A DNA stretch of 62,010 nucleotides from Hyphomicrobiaceae bacterium (GCA_031401535.1 JANNRP010000387.1:1-62010), one strand, 5' to 3'. Positions 5,778 through 37,841 are shown, numbered from the stretch's first letter. Numbers and translations are program-made. Notes: generated by a model not told the origin, from the sequence alone.

Positions 5778-5800
5778 TTAGTTCGCATCCTGTTGGAGGC

Positions 5801-6517: not shown

Positions 6518-6729
6518 GCAGTCCTCCCCAGGTCCATTCCCTCCAGGCTACGTAGCATGCTCCCTGCGGGGGTGGTGCGTGCCCGGCAAAGGCCCTTCCA
6601 TCATTTCTCTGTGACTAGACATACTGCAAATGTGCTTTCATGGTGAGTTGTTCGGCGCGTGGCAGGCGAACGCGGTATGGCCTGAAGAATGGAGCACGGC
6701 TCGGGGAAGTCCGTGTGCGCGGGGCAAAC

Positions 6730-8975: not shown

Positions 8976-8997
8976 GGGCATCGTCAGCCGCTAAAAC

Positions 8998-9546: not shown

Positions 9547-9628
9547 ATGGTTACTCCCGCAGCCTGTGGAACCCATTTGAGCGCACGCGCTGCAAATTTC
9601 GCGCCGACAGGCCGCAGAAGTGCCGACT

Positions 9629-10288
9629 TCAGGACAACCGTCGATACCAACCGGCGATCAACCCATTGCCCTTGAACGGACCCCAGGGCCGCCGCGTCAG
9701 CAGAGCGTCAAGACCAAGGCTCTTGCCGGCGCTGTTGATCAGGAAAAAGCCCTGCACGAAGACGAGGAAGATGTAGAGCCACGGCCACTCGCCTGGATGC
9801 CTGTAGAGTCCAAGCCAGAGGTGCAGCGTAAACAACATGCCGACGGCTGCCATCGGCCGGACGCAGAAGCCGAGGATGAAGGCGATGGCGAGTGACAGCT
9901 CGGTCAGATAGACGATCGGGTTGATGACCGCGAGGGCGGGAATGTAGATGTTGGTTGCGATCCAACTATGGGCGCTGAAGGCTGCGTGCTCGGCCAATTG
10001 GCGCGTCCAGCCGTCAAGACCGCCCGAGATCGGCAGCGGCAATTTCCAAAGCGATCCCTGGAACCACATCGAACCGATGCCGAGGCGCATGATCCAGGTG
10101 CCGACGTGTTCGGACGTGCGTTGCGACGGATCTTCAGACCAGTTCTTCCAGGCGATGTAGGCGCTGCCAAACAGCAGAGCCAGAAAGCCAAGCGTCAGCA
10201 CCCATGCGAAAAACGGGCCGGCATTGTTGTGATCGCCGGTCTTGCCGAGCAGAAACAGCCACGTGTCATAGAACGGATTGGTTTTCAT
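9629..10288 (-). CDS. DoxX/DoxD-like membrane protein
   Basis: 219 aa with 4-5 TM helices and a DoxX-like pattern. Its start overlaps the end of the SelD-fusion ORF by 23 nt. Confidence 0.6.
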   Translation of the reverse strand: MKTNPFYDTWLFLLGKTGDHNNAGPFFAWVLTLGFLALLFGSAYIAWKNWSEDPSQRTSEHVGTWIMRLGIGSMWFQGSLWKLPLPISGGLDGWTRQLAEHAAFSAHSWIATNIYIPALAVINPIVYLTELSLAIAFILGFCVRPMAAVGMLFTLHLWLGLYRHPGEWPWLYIFLVFVQGFFLINSAGKSLGLDALLTRRPWGPFKGNGLIAGWYRRLS

Positions 10289-12647: not shown

Positions 12648-14179
12648 CTTGGAATACCTGCCGGCCTGAGTGTTTGTGCGCCAGCGGCTTCGGCAAGTCG
12701 CGTCGGCAGAGTCGATATTTTGAGAGACGCACGAACGAAACGCGACACAGCATCAATGATTGCGGATAGCACGACCGTGGCTGCAATGAGCACGACGGCC
12801 ACATCGTAGCGCAATTCCGAGATGGCCCCATCGATATGAAACCCAAGTGTACCGACGCCAAGTACACCAAAGATCGCACTCTCGCGCACGATGATTTCCC
12901 AGCGATAGAGCAGGTATGCCAGGAACTGCCCGTACATGCGTGGAACCACTTCGAAGGCATAAAGGTTGATGCCCGCAGGCGCATCACGGCGTTGTTCCAA
13001 CTGGTCGGCATGACGGCCCATGAGATAGCCGATGATGCCACCGTTGTGCACGGCGAGCGCGATGATGGCTGGCAACATTGACGGCCCAAGCACCTGCAGC
13101 AGCACGTAGGCCAGCATGTATTCCGGCGTCGAGCGTATAATGACCAGCATAACGCGCCCAGCCGTCTGACCGCCGAGCCCAAGGAACGTGCGCGAAATCG
13201 CTGGGAAAACCACGAGCGCCATGATGCCAGCCGCGACCAGCGCGATCTGCGACAGCACCAGTGTCTGCCACGTGCCGGGCAGGATTTTGGTCGTCAGGAT
13301 CAGCCAAAACCATTTGCCAAGGGCCGCCCAAGTCGCGAGGTCGAGCAAAGCACCGTTGCGCAGTGGAAACGGCACGATGTCGTGGCCAACGAAGCGGATG
13401 AGGTTTGTGAGTGCCGACCCGCCGCCAATCGTTTCGGGCAGGAGCAACAGACTCGCGACCAGCAGCAGTGGAACAGTCGCCGGGCGTGCCCAGATGCGGC
13501 GCGTGCCGATCAGAAGATAAAAGACGCCGAGCAAAGCGGCTGCCTGTGCATAACGACCCTGTTTGAAATAGCTCTCAAGGTGAAAGCCGATCGTCGGCAG
13601 GCCGATGAAGCCGAGGATGAGTGTCGAGCGCATCCCGCATTCGAGGCGATAGAGCGTGTAGGTCTTGAAGCGTTCCAGGACTTCGGGCAGGCGCGCGAAC
13701 GCGAAGGCTGACACGGCGGACGTGCCAAACGGCAGTACACGTTCGGCGGCGAGATCCGCTTCTTCGAGCATCTCGGCGTAGACCTTGGCGAAGATGCCGG
13801 CATAGGGGACGGCAATCGCGAGCACGCCGGTCACCGGCCCGAGACCGAACACCTGGATCAGCAGCAAAGCCCAGAACAGTTCGTGGATTGAGCGGATGAC
13901 AACTGAAAACCGGCGCACGGCGGCACTGCGCGGGTAGAGGATCGCCAGACCAAAACCAGCGGCAGATCCAAGACCGACGCCGACCACGGCGAAGGCAACG
14001 GTCCAGATGACACTCCAAAGTTCAATCGCTCTGATGTCCGGCGTCAAAATTCCCCAGCTGAGGCGTTTGAGATCTGCCCATGGATTAAGAGCGGTGACAG
14101 CGATATCAGCCACCAGCAGGCAGACGATGGCGGCGGCCAGTAACAGCGCGCTGACGCTCGCATACGTGAGGCGCATCAT
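12644..14179 (-). CDS. ABC transporter permease, fused double PhnE-type
   Basis: 511 aa, two tandem PhnE-like six-helix modules. It has ATGA-type overlaps with both neighbours. Confidence 0.8.
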   Translation of the reverse strand: MMRLTYASVSALLLAAAIVCLLVADIAVTALNPWADLKRLSWGILTPDIRAIELWSVIWTVAFAVVGVGLGSAAGFGLAILYPRSAAVRRFSVVIRSIHELFWALLLIQVFGLGPVTGVLAIAVPYAGIFAKVYAEMLEEADLAAERVLPFGTSAVSAFAFARLPEVLERFKTYTLYRLECGMRSTLILGFIGLPTIGFHLESYFKQGRYAQAAALLGVFYLLIGTRRIWARPATVPLLLVASLLLLPETIGGGSALTNLIRFVGHDIVPFPLRNGALLDLATWAALGKWFWLILTTKILPGTWQTLVLSQIALVAAGIMALVVFPAISRTFLGLGGQTAGRVMLVIIRSTPEYMLAYVLLQVLGPSMLPAIIALAVHNGGIIGYLMGRHADQLEQRRDAPAGINLYAFEVVPRMYGQFLAYLLYRWEIIVRESAIFGVLGVGTLGFHIDGAISELRYDVAVVLIAATVVLSAIIDAVSRFVRASLKISTLPTRLAEAAGAQTLRPAGIPR

Positions 14180-14868
14180 GGAACGGCACCGCCGAAGTGC
14201 CCGATCAGGTCGCGCGCATTCAAGGCTGAGCTGCGCTCGTCGATGATCTTGCGGCCAGCCTCAAGAACGATAATGCGGTCCGCATGCTCAAAGGCAAGAC
14301 CGACGTCGTGCAAGGCCAAGACCAGCGTGCCAAAACGGAGGCGCAACAGGCGTAATATGTCGCCGCCTTGGACACTGTCGAGTGCCGAAACCGGCTCATC
14401 GCCGATTAAAATCGGCCGACCGTTGTAAAGCGCACGCGCCACCGAGACACGCTGTTGCTGTCCGCCGGAGAGAGCGCCCGCCTGCTCGCGCAGTTTCTCG
14501 GCCAAACCAACGTCGGTGAGGACGGACGACACCTGCGCCAGCTCATCGTCGCGCGGCCACACGAGATTGCGCAGATTATAGGCCGTTGAATGGCGATCCA
14601 GACGCCCCATGTAAACGTTATGAAACACGGACAGCGGTTTCACCAATGCTGCGGCTTGCGGCACGAGGGCAACGTGCCTCGGCACCTGATCATAGAGGAG
14701 GCCAAGCAACGTCGATTTGCCTGCACCGCTGCGGCCCATGATAGCCACGCACTCGCCAGCCTCAACCGACACCGATACATCATGCAGTACCGGCCGGCCT
14801 TGATAGCCGGCCGATGCATTCTCAACCGCGAGGGCTATGTCCCCGACCATACGCGCGCCCCCGCCCAA
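14176..14868 (-). CDS. ABC transporter ATP-binding protein (PhnC-like)
   Basis: Walker A GRSGAGKST, signature LSGGQQQR, Walker B ILIGDEP. Confidence 0.9.
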   Translation of the reverse strand: MGGGARMVGDIALAVENASAGYQGRPVLHDVSVSVEAGECVAIMGRSGAGKSTLLGLLYDQVPRHVALVPQAAALVKPLSVFHNVYMGRLDRHSTAYNLRNLVWPRDDELAQVSSVLTDVGLAEKLREQAGALSGGQQQRVSVARALYNGRPILIGDEPVSALDSVQGGDILRLLRLRFGTLVLALHDVGLAFEHADRIIVLEAGRKIIDERSSALNARDLIGHFGGAVP

Positions 14869-14890
14869 TGCTGCTCCGCAAAGCGGGAGC

Positions 14891-15763
14891 TCAGTTGATT
14901 AGCCCGATGGATTTGCCGACATCCTCGATGGCCTTGTAGTCGCTGTTCTTGGCGGGGATAAACTTGGAGCGGTCGAAGATTGCCAGCATCTTGGGATCAT
15001 CAATGCCGAGGATCACAGCTTGCAATTTGTCCTTGAAGCCAGCACCGAAGGTCTTGTCGAGATCACCACGCGCCACCCAATGATAGTCGGGGAAATCCGG
15101 CGTCTCCCAGATCGGGTGCACCATCTTTGTATCGACCTTGCCGGCCTTCACTTCCTGGTCCCACACGACGTAACTCAACACGCCGACCTGATAGGCACCG
15201 GACTGGACGAGTTGGATCGTTTTGCTGTGGTCACCCGAATACCCAACGCGCGAGAAGAAGGCTTCAGGTCCTTTACCCGTGGCTTGCCGGAGGAAGTGTT
15301 CTGGGAAAAGGCGGCCGGACGTCGAGGAGCGCGAGCCGAACGTGAAGGTCTTGCCTTCCATGGCTTTGGGGAAGTCTTTGCTCGGCATAATGCCAGCCGA
15401 CACATTGGCGATGAAGTAACTCTTGAAGGCGGGATCTTCGGCGCCTTGGGCAATGGCGTCGGAACCCGGAACTGACAAGCGCGCCTGCACGCCGGTCAGG
15501 CCGCCGAACCAGGCAAATTGCACTTGGTTGTTGGTGAACGCCGTCACGGCAGCTGGATAGCTCTTCACCGGCAGATATTTGACGGAGACACCGAGCTTGG
15601 CCTCGAAGTATTTGGCATAGATCGAGAACCGCTCCACCAGGCGGGTTTCATCCTCGTCGGGGATGGCCGTAAAAACGAGGGTCTGCGTCTGGGCATGCGC
15701 CAGACCGAGAGGTGTGGCAGCGGCCAGCGCCGCCAAAGAAGCTGTTACAGTGCGTCTATTCAT
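14891..15763 (-). CDS. PhnD-type periplasmic binding protein (phosphonate/phosphite/putative selenate class)
   Basis: Signal peptide MNRRTVTASLAALAAATPLGLAHA. PhnD-like motifs FTAIPDED, FAWFGG, GSRSSTSG. Confidence 0.8.
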   Translation of the reverse strand: MNRRTVTASLAALAAATPLGLAHAQTQTLVFTAIPDEDETRLVERFSIYAKYFEAKLGVSVKYLPVKSYPAAVTAFTNNQVQFAWFGGLTGVQARLSVPGSDAIAQGAEDPAFKSYFIANVSAGIMPSKDFPKAMEGKTFTFGSRSSTSGRLFPEHFLRQATGKGPEAFFSRVGYSGDHSKTIQLVQSGAYQVGVLSYVVWDQEVKAGKVDTKMVHPIWETPDFPDYHWVARGDLDKTFGAGFKDKLQAVILGIDDPKMLAIFDRSKFIPAKNSDYKAIEDVGKSIGLIN

Positions 15764-15894
15764 GTGAGTCCCCAAAGGTAGATCATAACGCGACACACTT
15801 GCCATAGCAGCAGATCAGTCCAGGACACTTCTCACGATTGGCCCGATGTCTATCACAGTTCAGTCAGGAAGCGCCGGGACCGCCGGTCCCAATG

Positions 15895-16779
15895 CTAATC
15901 GACACGCACTGTGCCGACGAACGCAATGCCCTCAAAGCCGACAGCACCGGTTCCCTGTTTCTCCTCAACTGCGGCCACGAAGCGGTCGATCACCGAGGTG
16001 GCGCGATCTCCGACCGCGTCGATTTGCGCCGCCATCCCCGGCGCAAACCGGAGCCGCTCGCCGAGCCACCGTGCTGAGGGAGCCCGCAGCGTCGCACGGT
16101 GCGGCTCGATCTCAACGGTGCTGAACCCGGCCGCGCGGAATAGGGCCTCGAAATCCGCGCGTTCGCGATAGCGCAATTGCGCCGGTAAGGTTGAAGCAGC
16201 GGCGCTCGGTTGGACGGCTTGGATTGCGGCCCTGAGCTGCGCGGCAAGCTCGTAGTGCTGCGGCTCGGTCCATGTGACAACGGCAACCCGTCCCCCGGGG
16301 CGCACTACGCGCCGCATTTCCGCAAGACCCCGCACAGCATCGGGAAACAGTATGACGCCGAAGATCGACACTGCCGCGTCGAATGTGGCCGCCGGATAAT
16401 CGAGCGCTTGCCCGTCCATCACGCTTGCCGTGATCGGCAAAGACTCGGCTTCTGCACGCATCGCGATGCGCGCGACCATGGCACCTGAGGCATCAATGGC
16501 CGAGACTTTGCAGCCGCGTCTGGCCAGTTCCAGAGCCGCGCCGCCACTGCCTGCGCCGACATCAAGGACTCGCAGGCCCGGTGTGATGGTCATGGCTGCA
16601 ATAACGTTGTTGGCAAAGGCAAGACTGAATGGCTCGAACACGGTTTCATACACCGAAACGTGATCGTTCCAGGCCTCGGGACGCTGATCGGGTTGGGCAG
16701 CTAGCGGTATCATTGGCGCGTGTCCGTCATTATAAGTCGTCTGGTCACTACCTGACCACCCCACCACAGCATCGTCCAA
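15895..16779 (-). CDS. Class I SAM-dependent methyltransferase
   Basis: Motif I VLDVGAGSGGAALELA, followed by an acidic residue after beta-2 (SAIDAS). The start is uncertain (16779 or 16713). Confidence 0.8.
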   Translation of the reverse strand: MDDAVVGWSGSDQTTYNDGHAPMIPLAAQPDQRPEAWNDHVSVYETVFEPFSLAFANNVIAAMTITPGLRVLDVGAGSGGAALELARRGCKVSAIDASGAMVARIAMRAEAESLPITASVMDGQALDYPAATFDAAVSIFGVILFPDAVRGLAEMRRVVRPGGRVAVVTWTEPQHYELAAQLRAAIQAVQPSAAASTLPAQLRYRERADFEALFRAAGFSTVEIEPHRATLRAPSARWLGERLRFAPGMAAQIDAVGDRATSVIDRFVAAVEEKQGTGAVGFEGIAFVGTVRVD

Positions 16780-16802
16780 TCACAGCTTCATGAGAGCAGC
16801 CA

Positions 16803-17852
16803 ATGAGCCTATTCGCCGTGCAGGCGCAGCCGACCGAGCAACCGGCGCCGACGCAGTTCGCCATCGGCCTCGGTTTGACCAACGAATGCAATCTCAGCTG
16901 CGCGTTCTGCTACCGCGATCCGGATCGCGTCGATCGGCTGTCCATCGAGCAAGTTCGCTCAGTGATGCAGCGGATGCCGGTACGCTCGGTGAACCTGGGC
17001 ACGGGCGAAAATGGTCTGCATCCGGAATTCAAGGCTATGATCGACTATCTCAAGTCGCAACCGATCAAGTTGACCATGACGTCCAATGGCTATTCGGTCG
17101 CCGCTGTCAGTGACGCCGACCTTGCATTCTTCAAAGACATCGAACTTTCCCTCGACTATCCGACCAAGGCCGAACAGGACCAGCAGCGCGGGGATGGCAA
17201 TTGGGATTTGCTGCACGAACAGGCCGCCCGTTGCCAGCGACTTGGTGTGCCCGTGACCTTCATCGCAGTCATGATGCAGACCAATTTTGATCGGCTGGCC
17301 GAGATCGCGACCATTGCCAAGCAGTACGACGCGCCTCTCCGCATCAACGTCTATCAGGCTGTCCGCACCGACAAGTTCGCATTAACCTATGACCAATACT
17401 GGAACGCCTTCGAGGCTTTGTTCGCCAGGACCGACGTGATCGCCGTCGGTGAGCCCCTGGTGCGCGCCATGGCCGGAATGCCGCCACGCACGGGCGGATG
17501 CGGTGTCGCGACAGTCCGTGTAACGCCGCGTGCCACCGTCCAGCCCTGCGTCTACTGGCCAGGCAAAGGCGAGCCGCTTGATGTGCTTCTAGATGTCGGC
17601 CCGGACGTGGTCGGCAGCGCGCCCTTCATTGCCGCACGATCAGTGCCGAGCGCCTGTGAAACCTGTGCGCACGTCGCCGCCTGCCGCGGTGGCTGCGCCG
17701 GCCGGCGGCGGTTGATGGGCGCCCTGGACAAACCCGATCCCTATTGCCCGATCGTGCGCGGCGACACACGCAAGCTCGCGGTCCAAATGGCGCCTGCGCG
17801 CGAAATGCCGAAGTTGGAAAGCGCCTGCACAACGATCGTGATGGCGCGGTGA
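16803..17852 (+). CDS. Radical SAM enzyme with C-terminal SPASM/twitch-like Cys cluster
   Basis: CNLSCAFCY (CxxxCxxC) near the N-terminus. The C-terminal segment CETCAHVAACRGGCAGRR...YCP is typical of SPASM domains. Confidence 0.8.
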   Translation: MSLFAVQAQPTEQPAPTQFAIGLGLTNECNLSCAFCYRDPDRVDRLSIEQVRSVMQRMPVRSVNLGTGENGLHPEFKAMIDYLKSQPIKLTMTSNGYSVAAVSDADLAFFKDIELSLDYPTKAEQDQQRGDGNWDLLHEQAARCQRLGVPVTFIAVMMQTNFDRLAEIATIAKQYDAPLRINVYQAVRTDKFALTYDQYWNAFEALFARTDVIAVGEPLVRAMAGMPPRTGGCGVATVRVTPRATVQPCVYWPGKGEPLDVLLDVGPDVVGSAPFIAARSVPSACETCAHVAACRGGCAGRRRLMGALDKPDPYCPIVRGDTRKLAVQMAPAREMPKLESACTTIVMAR

Positions 17853-17870
17853 GCCGACGGGTCAGCGATG

Positions 17871-18683
17871 TCACGCCAGTGCTGGAGAGACCTGATAGTC
17901 CTCAGTGTGCACCAATACAGAGTGCGGCGTGACAAAGATGATGCCGTAGGCGGCGGGCTCCTCGACTGACAGCGAGGCGTCCTCGCTATCAAAGGTCATC
18001 GGCTGCTGATGGACTGGACTCTTATAGACCGAGAATGGGATGCCCTGGATCGAACCACTGATAGTCCGATGGATATGGCCTGCCACGATGTGGCGAACGT
18101 TGCCGCGCCGCAGGACGATGTCGAAGAACGCGGCCTCATCCTTCAACCGGATGGTACCCATGCCGCGAAAGCCGACCGCATGCGGGGGATGATGCATGAA
18201 GATGATCGCCTGCCGCCGCGCCGGCAGATCGAGCGCGGCATCGAGCCACGCCAGCCGATGACGGCACAGCGCACTGTGGTGGATCTCGCCGTGGTCGTAG
18301 GGTGGGCCGTGAAGCGTATCGAGATAGATCAGCCGCAGCGGGCCATGATCGAGGCAGCGTTGAACAAAACCATTCGCGTCCGTCGGTGTCTCGGGAAAGG
18401 CGGCCCGGAAGGCGTCGCGGCGATCGTGATTGCCGAGCAAAAACGAGATCGGAATGGTCACGCCGACCAAGCGCGTTCGCAGCTGGTCATAGGCTGCGCG
18501 GTCGCCGTGGTGCGTCAGGTCTCCGGTGATGATCAGGTGGTCGGCGTCGGCATGGCGGTGGCGGATGTGCACGAGCGCTGCGGCAAGACGTTCCTGAGGA
18601 TCCAGGCCAAGGATGGTCTCACCGGCCGGTGTCACGTGGAGGTCCGTGAGGATGATCAACTTGAGACGCTCTGTGCCGGGCAT
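17871..18683 (-). CDS. Metallophosphoesterase, GpdQ/CpdA-like phosphodiesterase
   Basis: Motifs DLH, GDLTHHG, GNHD, MHHPP, GHIH in canonical order. The ATG at 18683 is preceded by GAGGA. Confidence 0.85.
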   Translation of the reverse strand: MPGTERLKLIILTDLHVTPAGETILGLDPQERLAAALVHIRHRHADADHLIITGDLTHHGDRAAYDQLRTRLVGVTIPISFLLGNHDRRDAFRAAFPETPTDANGFVQRCLDHGPLRLIYLDTLHGPPYDHGEIHHSALCRHRLAWLDAALDLPARRQAIIFMHHPPHAVGFRGMGTIRLKDEAAFFDIVLRRGNVRHIVAGHIHRTISGSIQGIPFSVYKSPVHQQPMTFDSEDASLSVEEPAAYGIIFVTPHSVLVHTEDYQVSPALA

Positions 18684-18748
18684 GGTATCCTCGCTTTTCT
18701 GGAAACAGGTCGAGACGCGACGCGCATGAAACACAGGACCGTGGATCG

Positions 18749-19411
18749 ATGATCGTGCAAAAATCGCTGTCGGCGGACATTCTGTTGTTCGACATGGACG
18801 GAACGTTGCTCGATGCGACGGCGGTCATCGCGCGCATCTGGACGACATGGTCTGCGCGCCATGGCGTCGACGCATCACACCTGCTCGAGGCGTCCCGCGG
18901 CCAGCGTGTGTCCGAGACAGTCCGCACGTTTGCGCCGCCTGGCATAGATCTCCAGGCCGAGGAGCTATGGCTGTCGCGGCAGGCTCATGTGGAGACACTG
19001 GAGCCCGCGGCGCTGCCAGGGGCCGTCGCGTTTCTGGCCGCGCTACCACGGGATCGCTGGGCGGTTGTGACCTCGGCTGAACGAAGCCTGGCGGTCAAAT
19101 GGCTGACTGGCGCCGGCCTCCCTCTGCCGCTCGTTCTCATCGCGGCGGCCGACGTGACGACGGGCAAACCGCACCCTGCAGGCTATCGTCTTGCGGCGGA
19201 ACGGCTTGGTTGCGACACCAGCCGGGCCATCGTCTTCGAGGATGCGCCTGCCGGAATAGAAGCCGCTCGCGCGGCCGGCGCAGGGGTCGTGGGTGTCGCC
19301 AACCGGGCCATTGCCGCCTGCCCGGACCTCGCACTCTGGGTGACGGATTTCCTGACGCTCAGCGTCGACGTCGACGAGACGCAACGCATCACGCTTTACT
19401 CACGGGCCTGA
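18749..19411 (+). CDS. HAD-IA family phosphatase
   Basis: FDMDGTLLD (DxDGT), VTSA (motif II), K...FEDAPAG (motifs III/IV). Confidence 0.85.
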   Translation: MIVQKSLSADILLFDMDGTLLDATAVIARIWTTWSARHGVDASHLLEASRGQRVSETVRTFAPPGIDLQAEELWLSRQAHVETLEPAALPGAVAFLAALPRDRWAVVTSAERSLAVKWLTGAGLPLPLVLIAAADVTTGKPHPAGYRLAAERLGCDTSRAIVFEDAPAGIEAARAAGAGVVGVANRAIAACPDLALWVTDFLTLSVDVDETQRITLYSRA

Positions 19412-19465
19412 GGCAGCAACCGCTGGCGCATCAGCAGCGATGGCCTTCAAACAGCAATCCGGACC

Positions 19466-20260
19466 ATGACCAAAACACCTCCGATCCTCAAGAACAAGCA
19501 CTACGATGAGGCCTCGACGTTCGTGCCTGAGAACCTCCTTCGCGAGGCGCGCCGCCAGAAGGGATTGACAACGACAGCGGTGCCGAAGGTCTGCGTCCTT
19601 GATCCGGATGGCGACATCATCCGGCATATGCAGAGAGCCGGGCGCGTCACACGGGATCCGGATTGGGCATGCTACCATACCGAGTTGTATCGCATGACCC
19701 ACGACGGCATTCGGCTCGGCATTGTGCCGTGCGCCGTCGGGGCCTCGTTCGCCGTTCTGGTTGCCGAGCAACTGCTTGCCTCGGGCTGCCAGTTGCTCGT
19801 CAGCGTGACATCGTCGGGTCAGCTCATCGCGTTGCGACCGCCGCCTTACTTTATTCTGATCGAACGATCCCTGCGAGACGAGGGTACAAGCTATCACTAT
19901 CTCCCACCCTCCGAATACAGCTCTGCCGATCCAAAACTCATCGCTGTCTTGGCGAACGCATTTGCCGGCTTGAGCGTTGTCGTGGAGCGCGGCGACACTT
20001 GGACGACCGACGCGCCGTTCCGCGAGACCGCAGCCGCAATTGCCGCCATGAAGGCAAAAGGGCTGCTCGCGGTCGAGATGGAGGCTGCCGCCCTTTATGC
20101 CTTCGCGGCCGCACGCAAAAAGCCCGTTATCTGCTTCGCGCACGTCACCAACCAGATGGCGCGGATTGAAGGTGACTTCGAGAAAGGTGAGGCCGACGGT
20201 TCGATTGATGCTCTATCGGTTGTGACGGCGGCGGCGAAAGCGTGGGTGAATTTACACTGA
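19466..20260 (+). CDS. Nucleoside phosphorylase (PNP/UDP family 1)
   Basis: Phosphorylase-family core with VEMEAAALY near the C-terminus. Length and layout match family-1 nucleoside phosphorylases. Confidence 0.7.
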   Translation: MTKTPPILKNKHYDEASTFVPENLLREARRQKGLTTTAVPKVCVLDPDGDIIRHMQRAGRVTRDPDWACYHTELYRMTHDGIRLGIVPCAVGASFAVLVAEQLLASGCQLLVSVTSSGQLIALRPPPYFILIERSLRDEGTSYHYLPPSEYSSADPKLIAVLANAFAGLSVVVERGDTWTTDAPFRETAAAIAAMKAKGLLAVEMEAAALYAFAAARKKPVICFAHVTNQMARIEGDFEKGEADGSIDALSVVTAAAKAWVNLH

Positions 20261-20492
20261 CTGCTCGGGCTCTGGACTTGCGAACGTGTGGCGCCAGTTG
20301 AAGGCTGTATTTGCGTACGACGATCAGGCGATGTTTCCCGCAACGCCCAGACGCACACGTGCTTGACGCTATACTCCGGCAACCGGACGTGGTTGATCGC
20401 GAGCACGTTGTCGGCGACCTTGCTCAATCGACTTCCGGTGCTCTGTATGAGACTGTGCGAAAACGGCGCCGAAAATCAACCAAAAACTCCGC

Positions 20493-21566
20493 TCACGTCA
20501 CAACTGCAACCATCCGCCAATCTGCCCCGTTTCGCGCCTCAAACGCACCCAATGGCCTCCTGGAAGCTGTCCTAAGGCCTACAAACAATGATAAAAAGGC
20601 CACGATGGCCTTCAGCAGGTCCTTCACACCGACGATCGAGAGCACGCGTTTGATGTTGTAGGCGAGCACATGCAACGCCATCTCGGTCGCGACGTGCTTC
20701 AGCGTTTTCATCTTGAAGTGTGTGGCGCCCATCCAGGCCTTCAGTGTGCCGAAGGGGTGCTCCACGGTCTCGCGCCGCACCTGCATCTGACCGGGCTTTT
20801 CGTCGAGCCGTGCTTGCATGCGGTCAAGAACGTCTTCGCGTTCCCACCGCTTGATGCGACGCTCCTTGCCGGTCGTGCAATCGCGCTTCAACGGACACGT
20901 CGCGCAGACGTTGGTCCAGTAGCTCCGCATTTGCTGACCTTTCTCTTCGGTCGTCATGCGGTACGTCAGATGATTGCTGGCTGGGCAAACGTAGTGATCC
21001 TTGGCCGGATCATAGGTGAAGTCGCGCTTGTCGAAGCGGCCTTCTGCTTTCGCGTTAGATGTCGCCACCTTCGGCACATTGGCCGTAATGCCGACGTCCT
21101 CGCACGCTGCAATTTCCAGATTGTTGAAGTAGCCTTTGTCGGCGATAACCTCGACGGTCTTGGCGCCGAATGCGTCCCTCGCATCCTTCGCCATGGACGA
21201 CAGCTGACCTCTGTCGATGCCGACATTCGTCACCTTGTGCGTGACGATCAAATGGTTCTTCGTGTCGACCGCACTCTGCACGTTATAGCCGACGGTGTAA
21301 GCGCTACTATGGCTCTGCGATGTCATCGCGCGTGCGTCGGGATCTGTCAGTGAAATCTGGTTCTCGCCGGATGCTTCCAGCTTCGCCTCCAACGCGGCCA
21401 ACGTTTGAAGCTTCTCCTTGTAACCTTCGATGCGATCCTTGATCGCCGCAATCTGCTTTTCAGGCACAGGCACGCCGCCAGCCTCCACCTGCCGATCTGC
21501 ACGATCGAGTTCGGCCAGATAACGATCGACGACATTCAGTGAAAATAAAAAATACTGTGAAATCAA
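20493..21566 (-). pseudogene. IS1182-family (IS5-like) DDE transposase, 5'-truncated remnant
   Basis: It retains the coiled-coil linker, DDE domain and C-terminal HPFGTLKAWMGATHFKMKTLKHV...AYNIKR signature. It lacks the N-terminal DNA-binding region of roughly 150-200 aa. The upstream end abuts an AT-rich junction. Confidence 0.75.
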
Positions 21567-21577
21567 TGAATTAAGGT

Positions 21578-21627
21578 TGGTGGAGCCGAGGGGGATCGAA
21601 CCCCTGACCTCTGCAGTGCGATTGCAG
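21578..21627 (-). other. tRNA-Ala(CGC) 3' fragment (anticodon arm to CCA); probable att-site/recombination scar
   Basis: The reverse complement reads CTGCA-ATCGCAC-TGCAG AGGTC AGGGG-TTCGATC-CCCCT CGGCTCC A CCA. The acceptor 3' strand implies G3:U70. No matching 5' half or D-arm lies upstream. Confidence 0.7.
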
Positions 21628-21811
21628 ACGCCGCATTACATCGGCCGCGTCGAATTGAACTGGACTTCCAAAGGGAAGCACGCATTGCTGTGGTTGTCGC
21701 CAGCGACGTGCTGATCGCGGCTGAATGGCATGGCTCGCCTCGCAGATTGCGGGGCTTCGGGTGGTGCGGGCGTCAATTCTGACGCTTCGCGCCATATGGA
21801 GCCCATACCCA

Positions 21812-22159
21812 ATGCCAACCGAAGCCAACGAGACCCTGTCTCTACCGAAGCGCCGTCAGAAGGCGCTGAAATCCACCGCGAAGCAGAGCGCATTCGCTGA
21901 AAGGCAGCGCACCAGCACGATTGCCTCACCACTGCCAAGTGCCGCACGTCGCACCAAGCAGGCCGACGTGATCGCACTTCTCAATCGGCCCGATGGCGCA
22001 ACCATTTCCGACCTGTGCGATGCCACCGGCTGGCAGCAACATAGTGTGCGCGGCTTCCTAGCGGGAACCGTCAAGAAGAAGCTCAGATTGACGCTGACTT
22101 CCTCGAAGGGGGATGGGCCCCACCGCCGCTATCGCGTCGTGGCCCGACGCGGCCGATGA
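21812..22159 (+). CDS. DUF3489 domain protein
   Basis: KQADVIALLNRPDGATISDLCDATGWQQHSVRGFLAGTVKKKLRL...RRYRV is the DUF3489 signature. The start is uncertain (21725 or 21812). Confidence 0.7.
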   Translation: MPTEANETLSLPKRRQKALKSTAKQSAFAERQRTSTIASPLPSAARRTKQADVIALLNRPDGATISDLCDATGWQQHSVRGFLAGTVKKKLRLTLTSSKGDGPHRRYRVVARRGR

Positions 22160-22160
22160 C

Positions 22161-22607
22161 ATGAGCGGATCAGACTTCGACCTCGCGGCCGAGGTCGAAC
22201 GGCTCGAGAGCCTGAGCCACATCGACTTGCGCGAGGCCTGGCGGCGTCTTTATCAGACGCCGCCACCTCAACGCCTCAGCCGCGAAATTCTGCTGTGAGG
22301 CATCACCTATAAACTGCAGGAGCGCACCTTCGGCGGTCTCTCGAGATCGTGCCTTCGCCGCCTCCAACGTGGCGGCGAGAAAGCTTCTCAGGGCAGGGAC
22401 CGCTCCCCCGGCGTCGTGCCGAAGCCCGGCACACAATTGGTACGCGAATGGCATGGCGTGACACACACGGTGATCATCCTCGCCGATGGTGTCGAGTGGA
22501 GGGGACGCCGTTACAAGTCCCTCTCGGTCGTCGCCTGCGAGATTACCGGCGCGCATTGGTCAGGACCAGGATTCTTCGGCCTGAGAGCAGGAGCATCGAG
22601 TGGCTAG
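22161..22607 (+). pseudogene. DUF2924 domain protein interrupted by one in-frame TGA (22296-22298)
   Basis: ORFs 22113-22298 and 22416-22607 share one frame. Read-through gives ...REILL*GITYKLQERTFGGL...PKPGTQLVREWHGVTHTV...ITGAHWSGPGFFGL, a continuous DUF2924 sequence. Confidence 0.75.
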
Positions 22608-22790
22608 CCACGCTCGGCTCGACGTCGTGCGCAGGACCTTCGCCGACCTTACCGGCGCACTGGAGGACGCGGCGGTGCTCACCGCGGAGGGCCAGGCCAG
22701 TCGCGTTGATGAGCACCGGCAGCGTGACGGTCTTCTTGCAGCGGTCAGCCTCATAGTTGTGCGTTTGCATCGGCTGATGAGGCGGCTCGA

Positions 22791-24473
22791 ATGAATCGGG
22801 TCGCCTGTGCCATCTATACACGCAAGTCGTCGGAGGAGGGGCTCGAGCAAGCATTCAATTCGCTCGATGCTCAGCGGGAAGCGTGTGAGGCCTACATCAC
22901 GAGCCAGAAGCACGCGGGCTGGGTGCCCGTGCGCGATCTCTACGACGACGGCGGCCTCTCCGGCGGCACGCTCGAGCGTCCCGCCCTCAAGCGGCTGCTC
23001 GCTGACATCGAGGCCGGCAAGGTGCGCATTGTCGTCGTCTACAAAGTCGACCGCCTGACACGCTCGCTCGCCGACTTTGCTAAGATCGTCGAGGTATTCG
23101 ATGCCCACGGTGCCTCGTTCGTCTCGGTGACGCAGCAGTTCAACACGACAACGTCCATGGGCCGGTTGACCCTCAAAATGCTGCTCTCGTTCGCCCAATT
23201 CGAGCGGGAGGTCACCGGCGAACGCATCCGCGACAAGATTGCCGCATCGAAGGCCAAAGGACTTTGGATGGGTGGCGTCGTTCCTCTCGGCTACGATGTC
23301 AGGGACCGAAAGCTCGTCGTCAACGAGGTCGAAGCCGGGACCGTACGCACAATATTTCGGCGCTACGCCGAGCTGGGATCGGTCCGGCTGCTTGCGCACG
23401 AGATCGTCCGGTTGGGAATTGCCGGCAAACGTCGCGCCGCGGCCGCCGGTGCCGCTATCTCCCGCGGCGCTCTCTACCAACTACTGCAGAACCGAATCTA
23501 CCGCGGCCAGATCGCCTTTAAGGGCAAGATCTATCCGGGCCAGCACGATGCCATCATCGACGCCGAACTTTGGCAGATCGTGCAGCAGAAGCTTGCTGCC
23601 AACCGGCAGGCCCGCACCCTATCCGTTGGCGCCGAGGCTCCGAGCCTACTCTGCGGGCTCATTTTCGATGCCGACGGAAACCGAATGACCCCGACGCATG
23701 CCAACAAGCAGGGACGGCGGTACCGCTATTACATCTCGGCCAGCCTAATCAATTGCGACGAAAGCGGACCGAATGCGATGCGCGTTCCTGCGAGCGACGT
23801 AGAGGCCGTCGTGCTCGATCAGCTGCGCTCATTCCTCTCCGAGTCGAAAGCCGTCGCCGACGCACTGCTCCCCTTCGGGCCGACCGCCGGACAACTCGAT
23901 CGAGCATTGAGCCGCGCAGCGGAGTTCGCGGTACGATGGCAGTCGATCCCACCTGATGAAATGCGTGCGCTGGCCCATAGGATGGTCGCTCGCGTGGTTC
24001 TGAAGCCAGATCGCATCACCATCGAGATTGGCACGCTCGGTCTCGGCGACACGCTCGGCGTCAGTATTGCTCCGGCAGATACGCCGCAGCAAACCGTTGT
24101 GCTGTCAGTCGCGGCCGCACTGCGCCGGCCCGGTAAGGGGAGGCGGCTCGTTATCAGCGAGGGCAACCGCATGGAGATCAATCCGCATTTGGTCCAACTG
24201 CTGCAAGAAGCCTTCGCCACTAAGGATCTCCTGCTCGCCGATACCGATGAGAGCATGAACGCCATCACGGACCGCCTCGGCAAGAGCAAGGGGCACATGA
24301 CCGTGCTGCTGCGACTTTCCTATTTGGCGCCGTCGATCGTCAATGACATTCTCGCCGGACGTGCCCCCACCGACCTTGGCCCGCATCGTCTGAGGCGGCT
24401 GTCGAAGGACCTGCCGCTCGACTGGGCCGGCCAACGCCGATTGTTGCGCCTCGATGGCGCCGACGGCGCTTGA
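22791..24473 (+). CDS. Large serine recombinase (resolvase/invertase N-domain plus recombinase domain)
   Basis: CAIYTRKSSEEGLEQAFNSLDAQREACEAYI holds the catalytic Ser. VVYKVDRLTRS and FAQFERE motifs are present, with a long C-terminal extension. Confidence 0.9.
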   Translation: MNRVACAIYTRKSSEEGLEQAFNSLDAQREACEAYITSQKHAGWVPVRDLYDDGGLSGGTLERPALKRLLADIEAGKVRIVVVYKVDRLTRSLADFAKIVEVFDAHGASFVSVTQQFNTTTSMGRLTLKMLLSFAQFEREVTGERIRDKIAASKAKGLWMGGVVPLGYDVRDRKLVVNEVEAGTVRTIFRRYAELGSVRLLAHEIVRLGIAGKRRAAAAGAAISRGALYQLLQNRIYRGQIAFKGKIYPGQHDAIIDAELWQIVQQKLAANRQARTLSVGAEAPSLLCGLIFDADGNRMTPTHANKQGRRYRYYISASLINCDESGPNAMRVPASDVEAVVLDQLRSFLSESKAVADALLPFGPTAGQLDRALSRAAEFAVRWQSIPPDEMRALAHRMVARVVLKPDRITIEIGTLGLGDTLGVSIAPADTPQQTVVLSVAAALRRPGKGRRLVISEGNRMEINPHLVQLLQEAFATKDLLLADTDESMNAITDRLGKSKGHMTVLLRLSYLAPSIVNDILAGRAPTDLGPHRLRRLSKDLPLDWAGQRRLLRLDGADGA

Positions 24474-24670
24474 ACCTTTCCGCCAGATCGCCAACCGCCT
24501 GTGCCGAAAGTGGCGTTCCGAGACGCTGGGCCAGGAAACGCGCACGACGGACGCGAATCGCGTCTCTGGCTAGGCTCAGGCCGATGCAGATCCCGCTAAC
24601 CTCCGGAAAGGCCGGACGAATTCCAAGGTGCAACAGATATGATATTTTCTAGCCAATTTAAAAGGTTGTA

Positions 24671-24755
24671 TGGTGGACAGGGCTGGATTCGAACCAGCGT
24701 AGGCGAAGCCAGCGGATTTACAGTCCGCCCCCTTTAGCCACTCGGGCACCTGTCC
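24671..24755 (-). tRNA. tRNA-Tyr (GUA)
   Basis: The reverse complement is GGACAGGTGCCCGAGTGGCTAAAGGGGGCGGACTGTAAATCCGC...GGTTCGAATCCAGCCCTGTCCACCA. It is 85 nt, with a long variable arm, anticodon loop CTGTAAA and encoded CCA. Confidence 0.95.
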
Positions 24756-37616: not shown

Positions 37617-37841
37617 GGTGCTTTTCTCTCCTGAAATCGATCAACGTAGTCGGTCGCAATCCAAGCCAGGCGACAACGCGGTACGACGGCAAATAGCTAT
37701 CGCCCGAAAATCGCAAAACACAAGCTGCTTGGAATCACCCGTACTGGATAACTTCCGATATAGTTGGAACGATCCGCAGGATTAGTCGTTTCTGTATTTC
37801 TGTTCGCTGTGGACGCCCGTTGCCAAACCTGGAAACCGTCA

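Follow-up and report, generated by a model that had tools for sequence, protein, structure and literature searches.

A radical SAM enzyme gene cluster syntenic with selenium uptake and activation genes and possibly directed to a selenium-containing sugar

The segment at positions 15895-20260 of the window, by which we mean the whole stretch of 62,010 nt that was analysed (Hyphomicrobiaceae bacterium, GCA_031401535.1 JANNRP010000387.1:1-62010), may be the right-hand end of a conserved, selenium-linked biosynthetic cluster of ~16 kb (about 4003-20260). The best explanation of the whole, which we infer from the evidence below, combines this cluster with an adenosyl-selenide route to a selenosugar of the cell envelope, and we give that combination slightly less than an even chance. 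Because the methyltransferase, radical SAM enzyme and nucleoside phosphorylase of the segment are syntenic with genes for selenium uptake and activation and for sugar transfer, the product of the cluster is probably an undescribed selenium-containing sugar compound; we found no paper describing the cluster. The interpretation of an earlier sequence-only reading, in which five genes of the segment together with SelD formed a selenium pathway resembling arsenosugar synthesis, is partly supported.

All five ORFs of the segment were found, each with a significant family match (Table 1). The layout had been described as two divergent pairs, less than 90 bp and 65 bp apart, followed by the nucleoside phosphorylase (PNP), and this was borne out. 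The gap between the methyltransferase (MT) and the radical SAM enzyme (rSAM) is 89 bp when their starts are taken as ATG 16713 and ATG 16803, and the gap between the phosphodiesterase (PDE) and the HAD phosphatase (HAD) is 65 bp with the PDE start at ATG 18683; the internal ATGs at 16713 and 18683 are the probable true starts. A promoter-like site occupies 16758-16729 (-) within the MT/rSAM gap.

Table 1. Genes of the putative cluster and its lineage-specific neighbours in the window
Gene	Position	Strand	Family evidence and remarks
NAD-dependent sugar epimerase/dehydratase, GalE-like	4003-5115	-	Last gene of DUF2064-GT2-epimerase operon; Pfam Epimerase 7.4e-46
GT2 glycosyltransferase, polyprenyl-phosphate-sugar synthase type	5028-5777	-	Pfam Glycos_transf_2 5.4e-17
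DUF2064/TIGR04282-family, CofC-like transferase	5801-6517	-	TIGR04282 152.6 bits, cut-off 134; NCBI name 'arsenosugar biosynthesis glycosyltransferase'
GT87-like multi-pass membrane glycosyltransferase, GT-C type	6640-8103	+	Pfam GT87 26.5 bits, cut-off 25; weak MptA-like match
DoxX-like small membrane protein	9629-10288	-	Last conserved gene of SelD operon; Pfam DoxX 20.1 bits, below cut-off 23.6
NDH-2/SQR-like pyridine-nucleotide-disulfide oxidoreductase fused to SelD (selenide, water dikinase)	10266-12647	-	
PhnE-like duplicated ABC permease	12644-14179	-	TIGR01097 191.7 bits, two stretches
PhnC-like ABC ATPase	14176-14868	-	ABC_tran 1.9e-23; TIGR02315 143.9 bits
Periplasmic binding protein	14891-15805	-	TIGR04553 'putative selenate ABC transporter substrate-binding protein' 355.3 bits, cut-off 250
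MT	15895-16779	-	Class I SAM methyltransferase, UbiE/TehB-like
rSAM	16803-17852	+	Radical SAM, seven-Cys SPASM-type domain; cluster anchor
PDE	17871-18734	-	SpdA-like class III metallophosphodiesterase; lineage-specific neighbour, non-core
HAD	18749-19411	+	HAD-IA phosphatase, sugar-phosphatase-like; lineage-specific neighbour, non-core
PNP	19466-20260	+	Hexameric-type nucleoside phosphorylase, adenosine/MTA-phosphorylase-like; conserved member

The segment had been placed directly upstream of the SelD/ABC operon. It does adjoin that operon, but the MT is most likely the first gene of an MT-ABC-SelD-DoxX operon, since it lies on the same strand as the binding-protein gene and 89 bp upstream of it. 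The MT matches Methyltransf_25 (7.8e-20), Ubie_methyltran (2.2e-14) and TehB (1.1e-6); with only one Cys it lacks the ArsM cysteines and is therefore not ArsM-like, and its ArsM score is below cut-off. The SelD fusion protein reaches 449.8 bits for TIGR03169 (cut-off 310) and 296.7 bits for TIGR00476 SelD (cut-off 125), stays below the cut-off of TIGR04369 'not SelD', and retains the catalytic Cys and Lys of SelD (CGGCGAK). In Naegleria, SelD carries a fused methyltransferase domain (PMC4561486). The orthologue of the DoxX-like protein in Acidobacteriota scores 29.4 bits for DoxX and also matches DoxD, and where the MT is absent the DoxX-like gene directly adjoins the rSAM. SenA and SenB were not found in the window.

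The rSAM (349 aa; Radical_SAM match 2e-12) contains the motif CNLSCAFCY and a SPASM-type C-terminus with seven cysteines (C233, C249, C285-x2-C288-x5-C294-x3-C298 and C315). These seven are invariant in A1, C233 is nearly invariant in A2, and the C-terminal Cys342 is also invariant. As the sequence-only reading had held, the enzyme is not an ArsS: the ArsS model gives 30 bits against a cut-off of 300, and the likeness is confined to the generic rSAM core. Its SPASM-family matches are MftC, GeoRSP, DynA and PapB, with MftC the top NCBIfam match at 85 bits (cut-off 265). The Foldseek neighbours, namely viperin, SkfB, anSME and BlsE, with DesII and MoaA also among the top matches, reach TM-scores of only 0.5-0.6, the highest being those of anSME (0.59-0.61 over the full length). 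The HMM and Foldseek comparison, which had been suggested as a check, assigned the rSAM to no characterised family, and the protein defines an uncharacterised one. A precursor-peptide-sized gene beside the rSAM had been judged absent; none was found, there is no space for one, and an RRE domain is absent from the rSAM as well.

Relatives of the rSAM are encoded at 495 genome loci. For comparison we used 80 species-level genomes with a close homologue (65-92% identity), and families were clustered de novo over 81 loci, i.e., the 80 and the window. Among the 80, the MT occurs near the rSAM in 54, PhnC in 52, DoxX in 51, the binding protein in about 50, PhnE in 47 and SelD in 46; with the window counted, PhnC is found in 53, DoxX in 52, the binding protein in 50 and PhnE in 48. 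The clustering further yielded GT2 (33 of 81), GT87 (27), a second rSAM (22) and SenB (9), and the next commonest unrelated flanking family is present in 7 loci only. In 55 loci the MT and rSAM are transcribed divergently, with a median distance of 155 bp between their conserved cores, and in ~40 the MT is co-oriented with the importer and SelD; Acidobacteriota have a more distantly related class I MT, whose gene is on the same strand as the rSAM and overlaps its start. SelD is present in 47 of the 81 loci, in 35 as the fusion and in 12 as a canonical stand-alone gene placed elsewhere in the cluster; across these arrangements, it is kept near the rSAM through gene replacement and rearrangement. 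Moreover, an outgroup rSAM of 46% identity adjoins a true SelD scoring 400 bits. In 9 loci, both Methylobacterium isolates included, the rSAM has SenB and EgtB/SenA-like genes as neighbours. The proposed test of co-occurrence thus found the rSAM, MT and PNP syntenic with SelD and the importer in dozens of species and in several independent arrangements, and the cluster to which these three genes belong is conserved in many soil bacteria.

Among the 42 loci flanked by 8 kb or more on each side, selenium genes occur in 32, the sugar module in 22, and at least one of the two in 41; the MT lies within 10 kb in 29 and is absent in about 30%. An undescribed selenium small-molecule pathway, as proposed earlier, is a reasonable reading on the grounds of synteny with SelD and the importer, the lack of a characterised rSAM family, of a precursor and of an RRE, and the 46% outgroup beside SelD. 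However, 10 of the 42 loci, mainly from Acidobacteriota, retain the core genes with no selenium gene within 10 kb (loci of this kind include L009, L014, L025, L057, L064, L066, L076, L078 and L079), so the MT/rSAM/DoxX/sugar core is possibly not selenium-specific, or SelD lies elsewhere in those genomes. More distant relatives of the rSAM (32-35% identity) have neighbourhoods of a very different kind, containing nitrogenase-like proteins or several rSAMs.

A glycosylation module of epimerase, GT2, DUF2064 and GT87-like genes, which the sequence-only reading had missed, accompanies the rSAM, also in Acidobacteriota and with an outgroup rSAM of 50% identity, beside which a second rSAM and a TIGR04282 protein come next. 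Of the 81 loci, 18 encode the DUF2064 protein, which matches TIGR04282 in every case. The top NCBIfam matches of the GT2 are AglJ, PpgS and dolichyl-P hexose transferase, and TIGR04283 gives only 36.6 bits (cut-off 182). The epimerase scores 147 bits for the NCBIfam GalE model, below cut-off, and is not conserved in other loci, where a second SPASM rSAM usually lies beside the GT2 instead; this second rSAM, which many loci have, resembles tungsten-cofactor and metalloenzyme maturases.

The PNP (PNP_UDP_1 2.1e-24) is nearest in solved structure to the T. thermophilus PNP and the S. solfataricus MTAP, and matches the HpnG model weakly (26.9 bits, cut-off 187). It is found in 24 of the 80 loci (25 of 81 with the window) and in 13 of the 42 fully flanked ones, about 30%. 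There are at least four types of arrangement. In 7 loci the gene follows the rSAM stop codon by 11-49 bp, in 3 it is adjacent to the rSAM in convergent orientation, and in 5 it forms part of the SelD operon. In the window, it is displaced from the position immediately behind the rSAM that it normally takes.

According to the route that we propose, the ABC importer would bring in a selenium oxyanion, its reduction would fall to the NDH-like domain, perhaps together with DoxX and the quinone pool, and SelD would make selenophosphate. The MT and rSAM would then form a C-Se bond at C5' of the SAM-derived 5'-deoxyadenosyl group, with the 5'-deoxyadenosyl radical attacking a (methyl)selenide on an auxiliary Fe-S cluster or as a diselenide; the resulting 5'-(methyl)seleno-5'-deoxyadenosine would obey the logic of ArsM/ArsS and HpnH via a non-homologous rSAM. 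Phosphorolysis of the adenine by the PNP would yield 5-seleno-pentose-1-phosphate. The CofC-like DUF2064 protein would activate the sugar, the GT2 would load polyprenyl phosphate with the selenopentose, the epimerase (here) or the second rSAM (elsewhere) would adjust the configuration, and the GT87-like transferase would pass the sugar to an envelope glycan or lipid. If this is true, the end product is a selenium analogue of arsenosugars and of the mycobacterial methylthioxylose caps. The explanation is weakened by the loci lacking the MT, the PNP or any selenium gene, and also by the likeness of the rSAM to ArsS in the generic core only, the usual chemistry of SPASM enzymes (hydrogen abstraction from a peptide, protein or sugar), the low TM-scores of the best fold matches, the MT without ArsM cysteines and the other contexts of the distant relatives; furthermore, the PNP could serve only to clear the 5'-deoxyadenosine by-product.

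The analogy with arsenosugar synthesis is stronger than was known to the sequence-only reading, which had denied any homology between the two sets of enzymes. The denial is correct as far as the rSAM and MT are concerned but fails when the cluster is taken as a whole, since a true TIGR04282 protein, encoded 10 kb upstream, is itself syntenic with the rSAM. Both pathways have a methyltransferase and rSAM pair beside genes for uptake and activation of a metalloid or chalcogen, as well as an adenine-removing enzyme. ArsS adenosylates DMAs(III) to DDMAA (PMC13598754), and this 5'-deoxyadenosyl transfer is the chemistry proposed here for selenium. In contrast, the present rSAM is of the seven-Cys SPASM type with no ArsS Cys-rich or Sec-containing domain, the MT is not ArsM, the GT2 is not TIGR04283, and the neighbouring SelD and TIGR04553 genes imply selenium rather than arsenic. 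The arsinothricin cluster arsQML likewise contains a compact pair, ArsL (a non-canonical rSAM) and ArsM, that makes a carbon-metalloid bond from SAM; however, ArsL is a different type of rSAM that transfers a 3-amino-3-carboxypropyl group, and there is no sugar module or phosphorylase.

In the selenoneine cluster senABC, SenC is SelD, SenB a selenosugar synthase and SenA EgtB-like. SelD is again the selenium donor for a small molecule, and the same 'putative selenate transporter' recurs in some of the sen clusters, but the rSAM, MT, DoxX, PNP and DUF2064/GT2/GT87 genes are outside the sen pathway, and the sen preprint mentions neither a radical SAM enzyme nor a methyltransferase. Two other systems pair an adenosyl-adding rSAM with subsequent removal of adenine by a PNP_UDP_1-family enzyme: adenosylhopane synthase HpnH with its PNP-family partner HpnG, and, in the futalosine route, MqnE, which adds 5'-deoxyadenosyl, with its nucleosidase partner. 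Neither HpnH nor MqnE is among the matches listed for our rSAM; unlike HpnG, the PNP here is far below the HpnG cut-off, and the acceptor would be selenium, not carbon. By gene type, the GT2 and the GT87-like protein resemble the pair that caps mycobacterial lipoarabinomannan with methylthioxylose, in which MtxT (Rv0541c, a membrane transferase) transfers the sugar from a lipid-linked donor made by MtxS (Rv0539, GT2).

A rather unlikely alternative retains the selenium-sugar pathway and makes the rSAM a conventional hydrogen-abstracting enzyme acting on a sugar, nucleotide sugar or lipid-linked sugar, with the PNP only removing inhibitory 5'-deoxyadenosine. The rSAM might dehydrate or epimerise a sugar in the manner of viperin, BlsE or DesII, which with MoaA are top Foldseek matches acting on nucleotides or sugars; these fold matches are weak, however. 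Alternatively, selenium from an auxiliary cluster might be inserted into a C-H bond (BioB, LipA or MiaB type) and then methylated by the MT, and the seven-Cys motif with the invariant Cys342 does imply two auxiliary clusters. Synteny with SelD and the sugar module fits equally well, and the low frequency of the PNP is as expected of dispensable salvage. Nevertheless, dedicated nucleosidases and phosphorylases are rare beside ordinary rSAM genes and typical where the adenosyl group stays in the product, as with HpnH/HpnG and the futalosine route; the PNP is tightly coupled to the rSAM or the SelD operon in the 7 and 5 loci given above, and the NCBI annotation ties the TIGR04282 family to the adenosylating ArsS route.

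It is unlikely that the MT/rSAM/DoxX/sugar core makes a methylthioxylose-like sulfur sugar or a 5-deoxy sugar for the envelope and in Alphaproteobacteria merely stands beside a selenium island of importer, SelD and selenoneine genes. The 10 loci that keep the core with no nearby selenium gene agree with such a core, as do the nine with SenB and EgtB, where several selenium functions cluster, and the likeness to the sulfur-based MtxS/MtxT system. In M. tuberculosis, methylthioxylose is a sulfur sugar derived from ordinary methylthioadenosine; a 5'-substituted-adenosine phosphorylase, an epimerase and a DUF2064 protein are presumably also near that locus, and we know of no rSAM, MT, SelD or importer there. 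However, cells normally form methylthioadenosine as a by-product when SAM is used, e.g., in polyamine synthesis, and a sulfur route would therefore need neither rSAM nor MT. Furthermore, in the ~40 co-oriented loci the MT most likely shares a transcript with the selenate-type importer and SelD. SelD stays beside the rSAM whether it is fused, replaced by a stand-alone gene or rearranged, and is adjacent again at the 46% outgroup.

We regard as quite improbable that the rSAM is a maturase of the anSME or cofactor type that, instead of making a small molecule, acts on the selenium system itself by modifying one of its proteins or cofactors, e.g., SelD, the binding protein or the DoxX partner. The best TM-scores (anSME), the SPASM domain, which is typical of maturases, and the maturase-like second rSAM agree with this role, but there is no constant target, as the Acidobacteriota rSAM keeps the MT, DoxX and sugar module with neither importer nor SelD; the RRE domain and precursor ORF are both absent, and the coupling to the PNP and sugar module would be unexplained.

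Under the preferred adenosyl-selenide route, two of the five genes have no part. The PDE (Metallophos) scores 387.9 bits for NF050112 (cut-off 400), just short of equivalog level for SpdA, the 2',3'-cNMP phosphodiesterase of rhizobia, and the HAD matches Pfam Hydrolase (9.1e-22) and NF008610 (122.6 bits, cut-off 282). Homologues lie beside the rSAM in only 2 of the 80 loci for the PDE (L002 and L059) and in 1 for the HAD (L056), all from Hyphomicrobiaceae. Because the PNP directly follows the rSAM in other genomes, the PDE and HAD were apparently inserted locally and are not core members, and an IS element and a recombinase border the segment. The five genes had been taken as one set with SelD, and this holds for the MT, rSAM and PNP only. 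The mundane alternative, in which unrelated genes that by chance adjoin a selenium operon serve to scavenge organophosphates or cyclic nucleotides (PDE, HAD) and to salvage 5'-deoxyadenosine or nucleosides (PNP), fits the PDE and HAD on all these counts but is very improbable for the segment as a whole, and a chance neighbourhood is ruled out for the MT, rSAM and PNP by a synteny that is conserved and repeatedly rearranged in dozens of species, no unrelated flanking family being found in more than 7 loci.

The five genes between positions 15895 and 20260, which encode a class I methyltransferase (MT), a radical SAM enzyme (rSAM), a phosphodiesterase (PDE), a HAD phosphatase (HAD) and a nucleoside phosphorylase (PNP), were placed with an ORF list and with Pfam and NCBIfam scans, and they lie as a sequence-only reading of this DNA had described them. 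The divergent spacings of that reading, 89 bp between MT and rSAM and 65 bp between PDE and HAD, are obtained with internal ATG starts at 16713 and 18683. The MT-rSAM gap contains a minus-strand sequence resembling a promoter (16758-16729) whose position fits the MT start; it was the sole fitting position in a promoter and terminator scan whose counts were no higher than chance. MT contains a single Cys and scored 36 bits against the ArsM model NF008823 (cut-off 263), and it is therefore ruled out as an ArsM arsenite methyltransferase. PDE is clearly a class III metallophosphodiesterase as far as its sequence tells, and among solved structures PNP comes closest to those of an archaeal MTA phosphorylase and a PNP of the adenosine type.

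Features of the selenium-linked cluster and its surroundings in the window
Feature	Position	Strand	Evidence
DUF6880 protein, full length	2152-3678	minus	477 bits
NAD-dependent epimerase	4003-5115
GT2, polyprenyl-phosphate-sugar synthase type	5028-5777		TIGR04283 36.6 bits (cut-off 182); better matches AglJ, PpgS
DUF2064 protein	5801-6517		passes TIGR04282 "arsenosugar biosynthesis glycosyltransferase", 152.6 bits (cut-off 134)
GT87-like membrane glycosyltransferase	6640-8103		Pfam/NCBIfam
Patatin-like phospholipase	8100-8975	plus
Chlorite-dismutase/HemQ-family ORF	8998-9576	minus	Pfam 31.8 bits
Class I methyltransferase (MT)	15895-16779	minus	Methyltransf_25 7.8e-20; UbiE and TehB-type matches
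Radical SAM enzyme (rSAM)	16803-17852	plus	Radical_SAM 2e-12; CNLSCAFCY
Metallophosphodiesterase (PDE)	17871-18734	minus	SpdA 2',3'-cyclic-nucleotide phosphodiesterase model NF050112, full length, 387.9 bits (cut-off 400)
HAD-IA hydrolase (HAD)	18749-19411	plus	Hydrolase 9.1e-22
Family-1 nucleoside phosphorylase (PNP)	19466-20260	plus	PNP_UDP_1 2.1e-24
IS transposase	20493-21566
tmRNA-like fragment	21578-21648		28.7 bits (threshold 47)
Large serine recombinase	22791-24473
tRNA-Tyr	24671-24755
Transglutaminase-like protein	37764-38705

The rSAM family has thousands of metagenomic matches, the best 120 of which share 74-92% identity, and relatives occur in at least 495 loci of the one-genome-per-species GTDB set. 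Our synteny set consists of the best 80 of these at least 495 loci, with up to 10 kb of flank on each side. According to tblastn searches with the window proteins, the 80 loci contain homologues of MT (54), the PhnC-like ATPase (52), DoxX (51), the binding protein (50), the PhnE-like permease (47) and PNP (24), whereas PDE is found in 2 and HAD in 1. A second count clustered all ORFs of the 80 loci plus the window (81 loci) without reference to annotation; it returned these families again and added SelD (47), GT2 (33), GT87 (27), a second SPASM rSAM (22), DUF2064 (18), SenB (9) and an EgtB/SenA-like protein (9). The commonest unrelated family reached just 7 of the 81 loci; therefore, the gene set around rSAM represents more than the general synteny of close relatives. 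Where at least 8 kb was available on both sides (42 loci), selenium genes were present in 32, the sugar module in 22, and either of them in 41.

The five genes had been proposed as a single set, and this proposal stands in part: MT, rSAM and PNP are syntenic with SelD, whereas PDE and HAD are too rare to be accepted as pathway members. Homologues of PDE and HAD appear beside rSAM sporadically, in three other Hyphomicrobiaceae; in the window the two genes occupy the exact spot where PNP normally abuts rSAM, and they may have an accessory role. The position of PNP itself varies among four arrangements: 7 loci have its start 11-49 bp beyond the rSAM stop codon, in 3 it adjoins rSAM in convergent orientation, 5 loci of Acetobacteraceae have it between DoxX and SelD, and in others it stands beside DoxX. 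In the outgroup locus L089, an rSAM with 46% identity is convergent with SelD (400 bits) and lies between it and a phosphoesterase of the phospholipase-C/acid-phosphatase family (7473-11103), with FGE-sulfatase-domain proteins nearby; it is the second instance in which a phosphoesterase adjoins an rSAM of this kind.

The link to selenium comes from the five genes that lie 3' of MT on the same strand, which encode a binding protein, a PhnC-like ATPase, a PhnE-like permease, an NDH-like::SelD fusion and a DoxX-like membrane protein. Because of this arrangement, we consider MT to be more than a neighbour and most likely the first gene of an importer-SelD-DoxX operon. Over its full length, the binding protein scores above the cut-off of TIGR04553 (355.3 bits, cut-off 250), a model named "putative selenate ABC transporter substrate-binding protein"; we know of no experimental demonstration of the ligand of this family. 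The fusion protein matches the NDH-2/SQR-like flavoprotein model TIGR03169 (449.8 bits, cut-off 310) and, in its SelD half, TIGR00476 (296.7 bits, cut-off 125); it stays below the cut-off of TIGR04369, 'fusion, not SelD' (443 vs 700 bits), and retains the catalytic Cys and Lys (CGGCGAK). On these sequence grounds, the SelD half is a true SelD. The fusion type is already known (PMC4561486). SelD occurs in 47 of the 81 loci, in 35 as the fusion inside the operon and in 12 as a canonical stand-alone protein (GGGCGCK) elsewhere in the cluster, often directly 3' of rSAM. The persistence of SelD despite its replacement is a sign of functional coupling beyond inheritance, and so are the varied placement of PNP, the preservation of the core genes in Acidobacteriota and the agreement of the outgroups with 46% and 50% identity. 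A chlorite-dismutase/HemQ-family ORF at the tail of the operon in the window has a counterpart in none of the 80 related loci.

SelD is also a component of selenoneine (sen) clusters, and the window is rejected as one since SenA (EgtB-like) and SenB (TIGR04348) are absent; tblastn for SenB and EgtB across the whole 62 kb returned no homologue. Elsewhere, SenB (406 bits, cut-off 300) and an EgtB/SenA-like gene do occur beside rSAM in nine loci, L020 (13168-14238 and 5549-6880), L028, L031, L040, L046, L054, L060, L068 and L080, among them loci of Methylobacterium brachiatum and M. phyllosphaerae, so that two selenium pathways share one island there.

The sugar module (DUF2064, GT2 and GT87 genes, with a local epimerase) lies outside 15895-20260 but is syntenic with rSAM in many loci, and all 18 of the 18 DUF2064 homologues syntenic with rSAM match TIGR04282. 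The window GT2 scores below the cut-off of TIGR04283 and is rejected as the arsenosugar-associated GT2. The earlier statement that the enzymes are not homologues of the arsenosugar route therefore holds for rSAM and MT, which fail the ArsS and ArsM models, and not for the wider cluster, in which the TIGR04282 protein passes. The real unit extends leftward from 15895-20260, from about position 4003, and leaves out PDE and HAD. A second SPASM rSAM, usually between GT87 and GT2 (L007:957-2033 and 21 other loci), is not in the window; it resembles tungsten-cofactor/metalloenzyme maturases (148 bits, cut-off 380), and the window epimerase beside GT2 may be its non-orthologous replacement. The patatin-like phospholipase gene overlaps the GT87-like stop by 4 bp, an arrangement found elsewhere only in the closest relative, L001, and a DUF6880 gene lies to the left of the module.

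The core is preserved in Acidobacteriota, where the class I MT is more divergent and, encoded on the rSAM strand, overlaps the beginning of rSAM, with DoxX, GT2, DUF2064 and GT87 adjacent. Behind an outgroup rSAM of 50% identity come genes for the second SPASM rSAM and for a protein that matches TIGR04282 with 191 bits. The contexts of more distant relatives (32-42% identity) are mixed (unknown genes, nitrogenase-like proteins or more than one rSAM) and do not clarify the chemistry. At 32-35% identity they include an MT, an AhpD-like protein and nitrogenase-like proteins, or several rSAMs; our pathway inference is limited to this rSAM subfamily. Two rSAMs of 34-35% identity, in L083 (6268-15556) and L081 (2237-9814), are accompanied by a class I MT, an AhpD-like (CMD) protein and a NifH-like ATPase, to which L083 adds two nitrogenase-like Oxidored_nitro proteins and L081 a split transketolase/E1-like pair; this gene set is a different, likewise uncharacterised system.

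The rSAM protein has 349 residues, and its N-terminus starts at the radical SAM core. The SPASM-type C-terminus expected from the earlier reading was found: in addition to CX3CX2C (C29, C33, C36), the enzyme contains the seven-Cys motif (C...C / CX2CX5CX3C / C) as C233, C249, C285-x2-C288-x5-C294-x3-C298 and C315. This motif binds two auxiliary [4Fe-4S] clusters, and two such clusters are predicted for rSAM. All of these cysteines are invariant in an alignment of 30 close homologues, and in one of 19 homologues reaching 28% identity they are invariant except for the nearly invariant C36 and C233; the C-terminal Cys342 is invariant in both. The Pfam SPASM model gave no score on rSAM. Classified by HMM and by structure, as had been suggested, rSAM is a member of no curated family. 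It scored far below the cut-offs of ArsS, MftC, GeoRSP, NirJ, MoaA and viperin, with 85.1 bits for MftC (TIGR03962; cut-off 265) and 59 for GeoRSP (cut-off 400). The ArsS model (TIGR04167) gave 30.3 bits (cut-off 300) over residues 23-136, the rSAM core only, and the C-terminus carries the seven-Cys SPASM motif and not the Cys-rich/Sec-containing domain of ArsS. A PDB sequence search retrieved no close solved structure, the top match being SkfB (34 bits). An AlphaFold2 model (pLDDT 80.7, pTM 0.83) matched viperin, SkfB, anSME, BlsE, CteB, PqqE, MoaA and DesII in Foldseek at TM 0.5-0.6, and the modelled fold is of the generic SPASM rSAM type. Because these matches are only generic, no function can be transferred to rSAM.

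Comparison of the loci gives a defined gene set linked to a true SelD, a TIGR04553 importer, PNP and the TIGR04282/GT2/GT87 module, from which PDE and HAD are excluded. We believe that MT, rSAM and PNP probably act in a selenium-linked small-molecule or glycoconjugate pathway; the undescribed selenium pathway suggested earlier is thus retained for these three genes with their links and abandoned for PDE and HAD. In the pathway we propose, a selenium oxyanion would be imported, the flavoprotein domain would then reduce it, DoxX and quinones perhaps taking part, and SelD would convert the reduced selenium to selenophosphate. MT and rSAM would make 5'-(methyl)seleno-5'-deoxyadenosine, the 5'-deoxyadenosyl radical attacking selenium on an auxiliary cluster or in a diselenide, and PNP would release adenine to yield 5-seleno-pentose-1-phosphate. 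The CofC-like DUF2064 protein would activate this sugar, GT2 would load it on polyprenyl phosphate, the epimerase (in the window) or the second rSAM (in other loci) would change its configuration, and the GT87-like enzyme would transfer it outside the cytoplasm. The specific adenosylation step by rSAM is put forward tentatively; by analogy, rSAM might belong to the 5'-deoxyadenosyl-transferring class (ArsS, HpnH, MqnE), to which the PNP partner and the TIGR04282 module point.

Several precedents exist for the individual steps. In the HpnH/HpnG and futalosine routes, an adenosylating rSAM is paired with a PNP-family enzyme. MtxS, a GT2, makes the lipid-linked methylthioxylose donor from which MtxT transfers methylthioxylose. 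For methylthioxylose biosynthesis, Rv0535/Rv0536/Rv0540 of M. tuberculosis are presumably a further parallel. Moreover, ArsS adenosylates DMAs(III) to DDMAA (PMC13598754), and in Naegleria SelD is fused to a methyltransferase domain (PMC4561486). The window system is a member of none of the ArsS/ArsM, sen or RiPP families; its logic comes closest to that of the arsenosugar and methylthioxylose routes, transposed to selenium and using an rSAM that is not homologous.

One weakness of the adenosylation proposal is that hydrogen abstraction is the normal reaction of SPASM enzymes. A conventional rSAM would take hydrogen from, or put selenium into, a sugar or nucleotide, with PNP merely clearing 5'-deoxyadenosine; with PNP and the TIGR04282 module beside rSAM, we regard this as rather unlikely. 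In addition, of the fully flanked loci about 30% lack MT, about 70% lack PNP and ten are devoid of selenium genes within 10 kb, and SelD was not found within 10 kb in Acidobacteriota. The core could accordingly be one that is not selenium-specific, makes a sulfur or deoxy sugar and only adjoins a selenium island; set beside the retention of SelD in either form, this is distinctly improbable. Less probable still is a maturase of a protein or cofactor. Full-length alignments of rSAM, by NCBIfam to MftC, GeoRSP and PapB and by structure to anSME (TM 0.6), fit a SPASM enzyme and recall such maturases, but a RiPP/peptide maturase is rejected: rSAM has no RRE/PqqD-like or N-terminal peptide-recognition domain, and no small ORF is conserved beside it. 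The flanking gaps are short (a median of 155 bp separates the cores of MT and rSAM across 55 loci) and in most loci leave no room for a precursor-peptide gene. A RiPP role is therefore unlikely, in agreement with the earlier remark that no precursor-peptide ORF adjoins rSAM. The alternative that the genes are unrelated neighbours, raised earlier as the mundane one, applies to PDE and HAD; for the other three, MT, rSAM and PNP, it is rejected.

Few deliberate uses of selenium by cells are known, namely selenocysteine, selenouridine and the selenium-molybdenum cofactor, joined in 2022 by selenoneine and ovoselenol. In reviews, "orphan" SelD genes still appear with no purpose assigned and, with their associated ABC ATPases, are flagged as an unexplained selenium trait. 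The cluster offers many of these genes concrete partners in an uncharacterised rSAM, a methyltransferase, a phosphorylase and a lipid-linked sugar-transfer module. The adenosylation proposal leads to a possible, still doubtful, further trait that is widespread in soil Alphaproteobacteria and Acidobacteriota: radical 5'-deoxyadenosyl transfer to (methyl)selenide, with 5-seleno-pentose passed via polyprenyl phosphate onto envelope glycans or lipids, as the selenium equivalent of arsenosugars and methylthioxylose and the first case of a biological Se-C bond made by a radical route. If true, it would mean that Se-C bonds can also form by a radical mechanism and would place selenium in bacterial envelope glycoconjugates, with a bearing on soil selenium cycling and plant-associated methylotrophs. 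A literature search of incomplete coverage, which does not prove novelty, retrieved no description of the rSAM/MT family or of its link to SelD or the TIGR04282 module. Even if the mechanism is wrong, three results hold: a defined gene set, the finding that PDE and HAD fall outside it, and its connection with the "arsenosugar" family TIGR04282. Among the at least 495 species-representative loci with a relative are some from Bosea and Methylobacterium strains that can be cultured.

The stretch 20493-24755 adjoins PNP on the right and, with its transposase, recombinase and tRNA gene, is a mobile-element/island border. An Rfam scan of 3500-22000 detected no riboswitch or regulatory RNA, the sole match being the sub-threshold tmRNA-like fragment outside the cluster. 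Transglutaminase-like proteins flank rSAM in Acidobacteriota (L078:7731-8843 and L079:11063-12160); the window also encodes one, 20 kb off, which is probably a coincidence.
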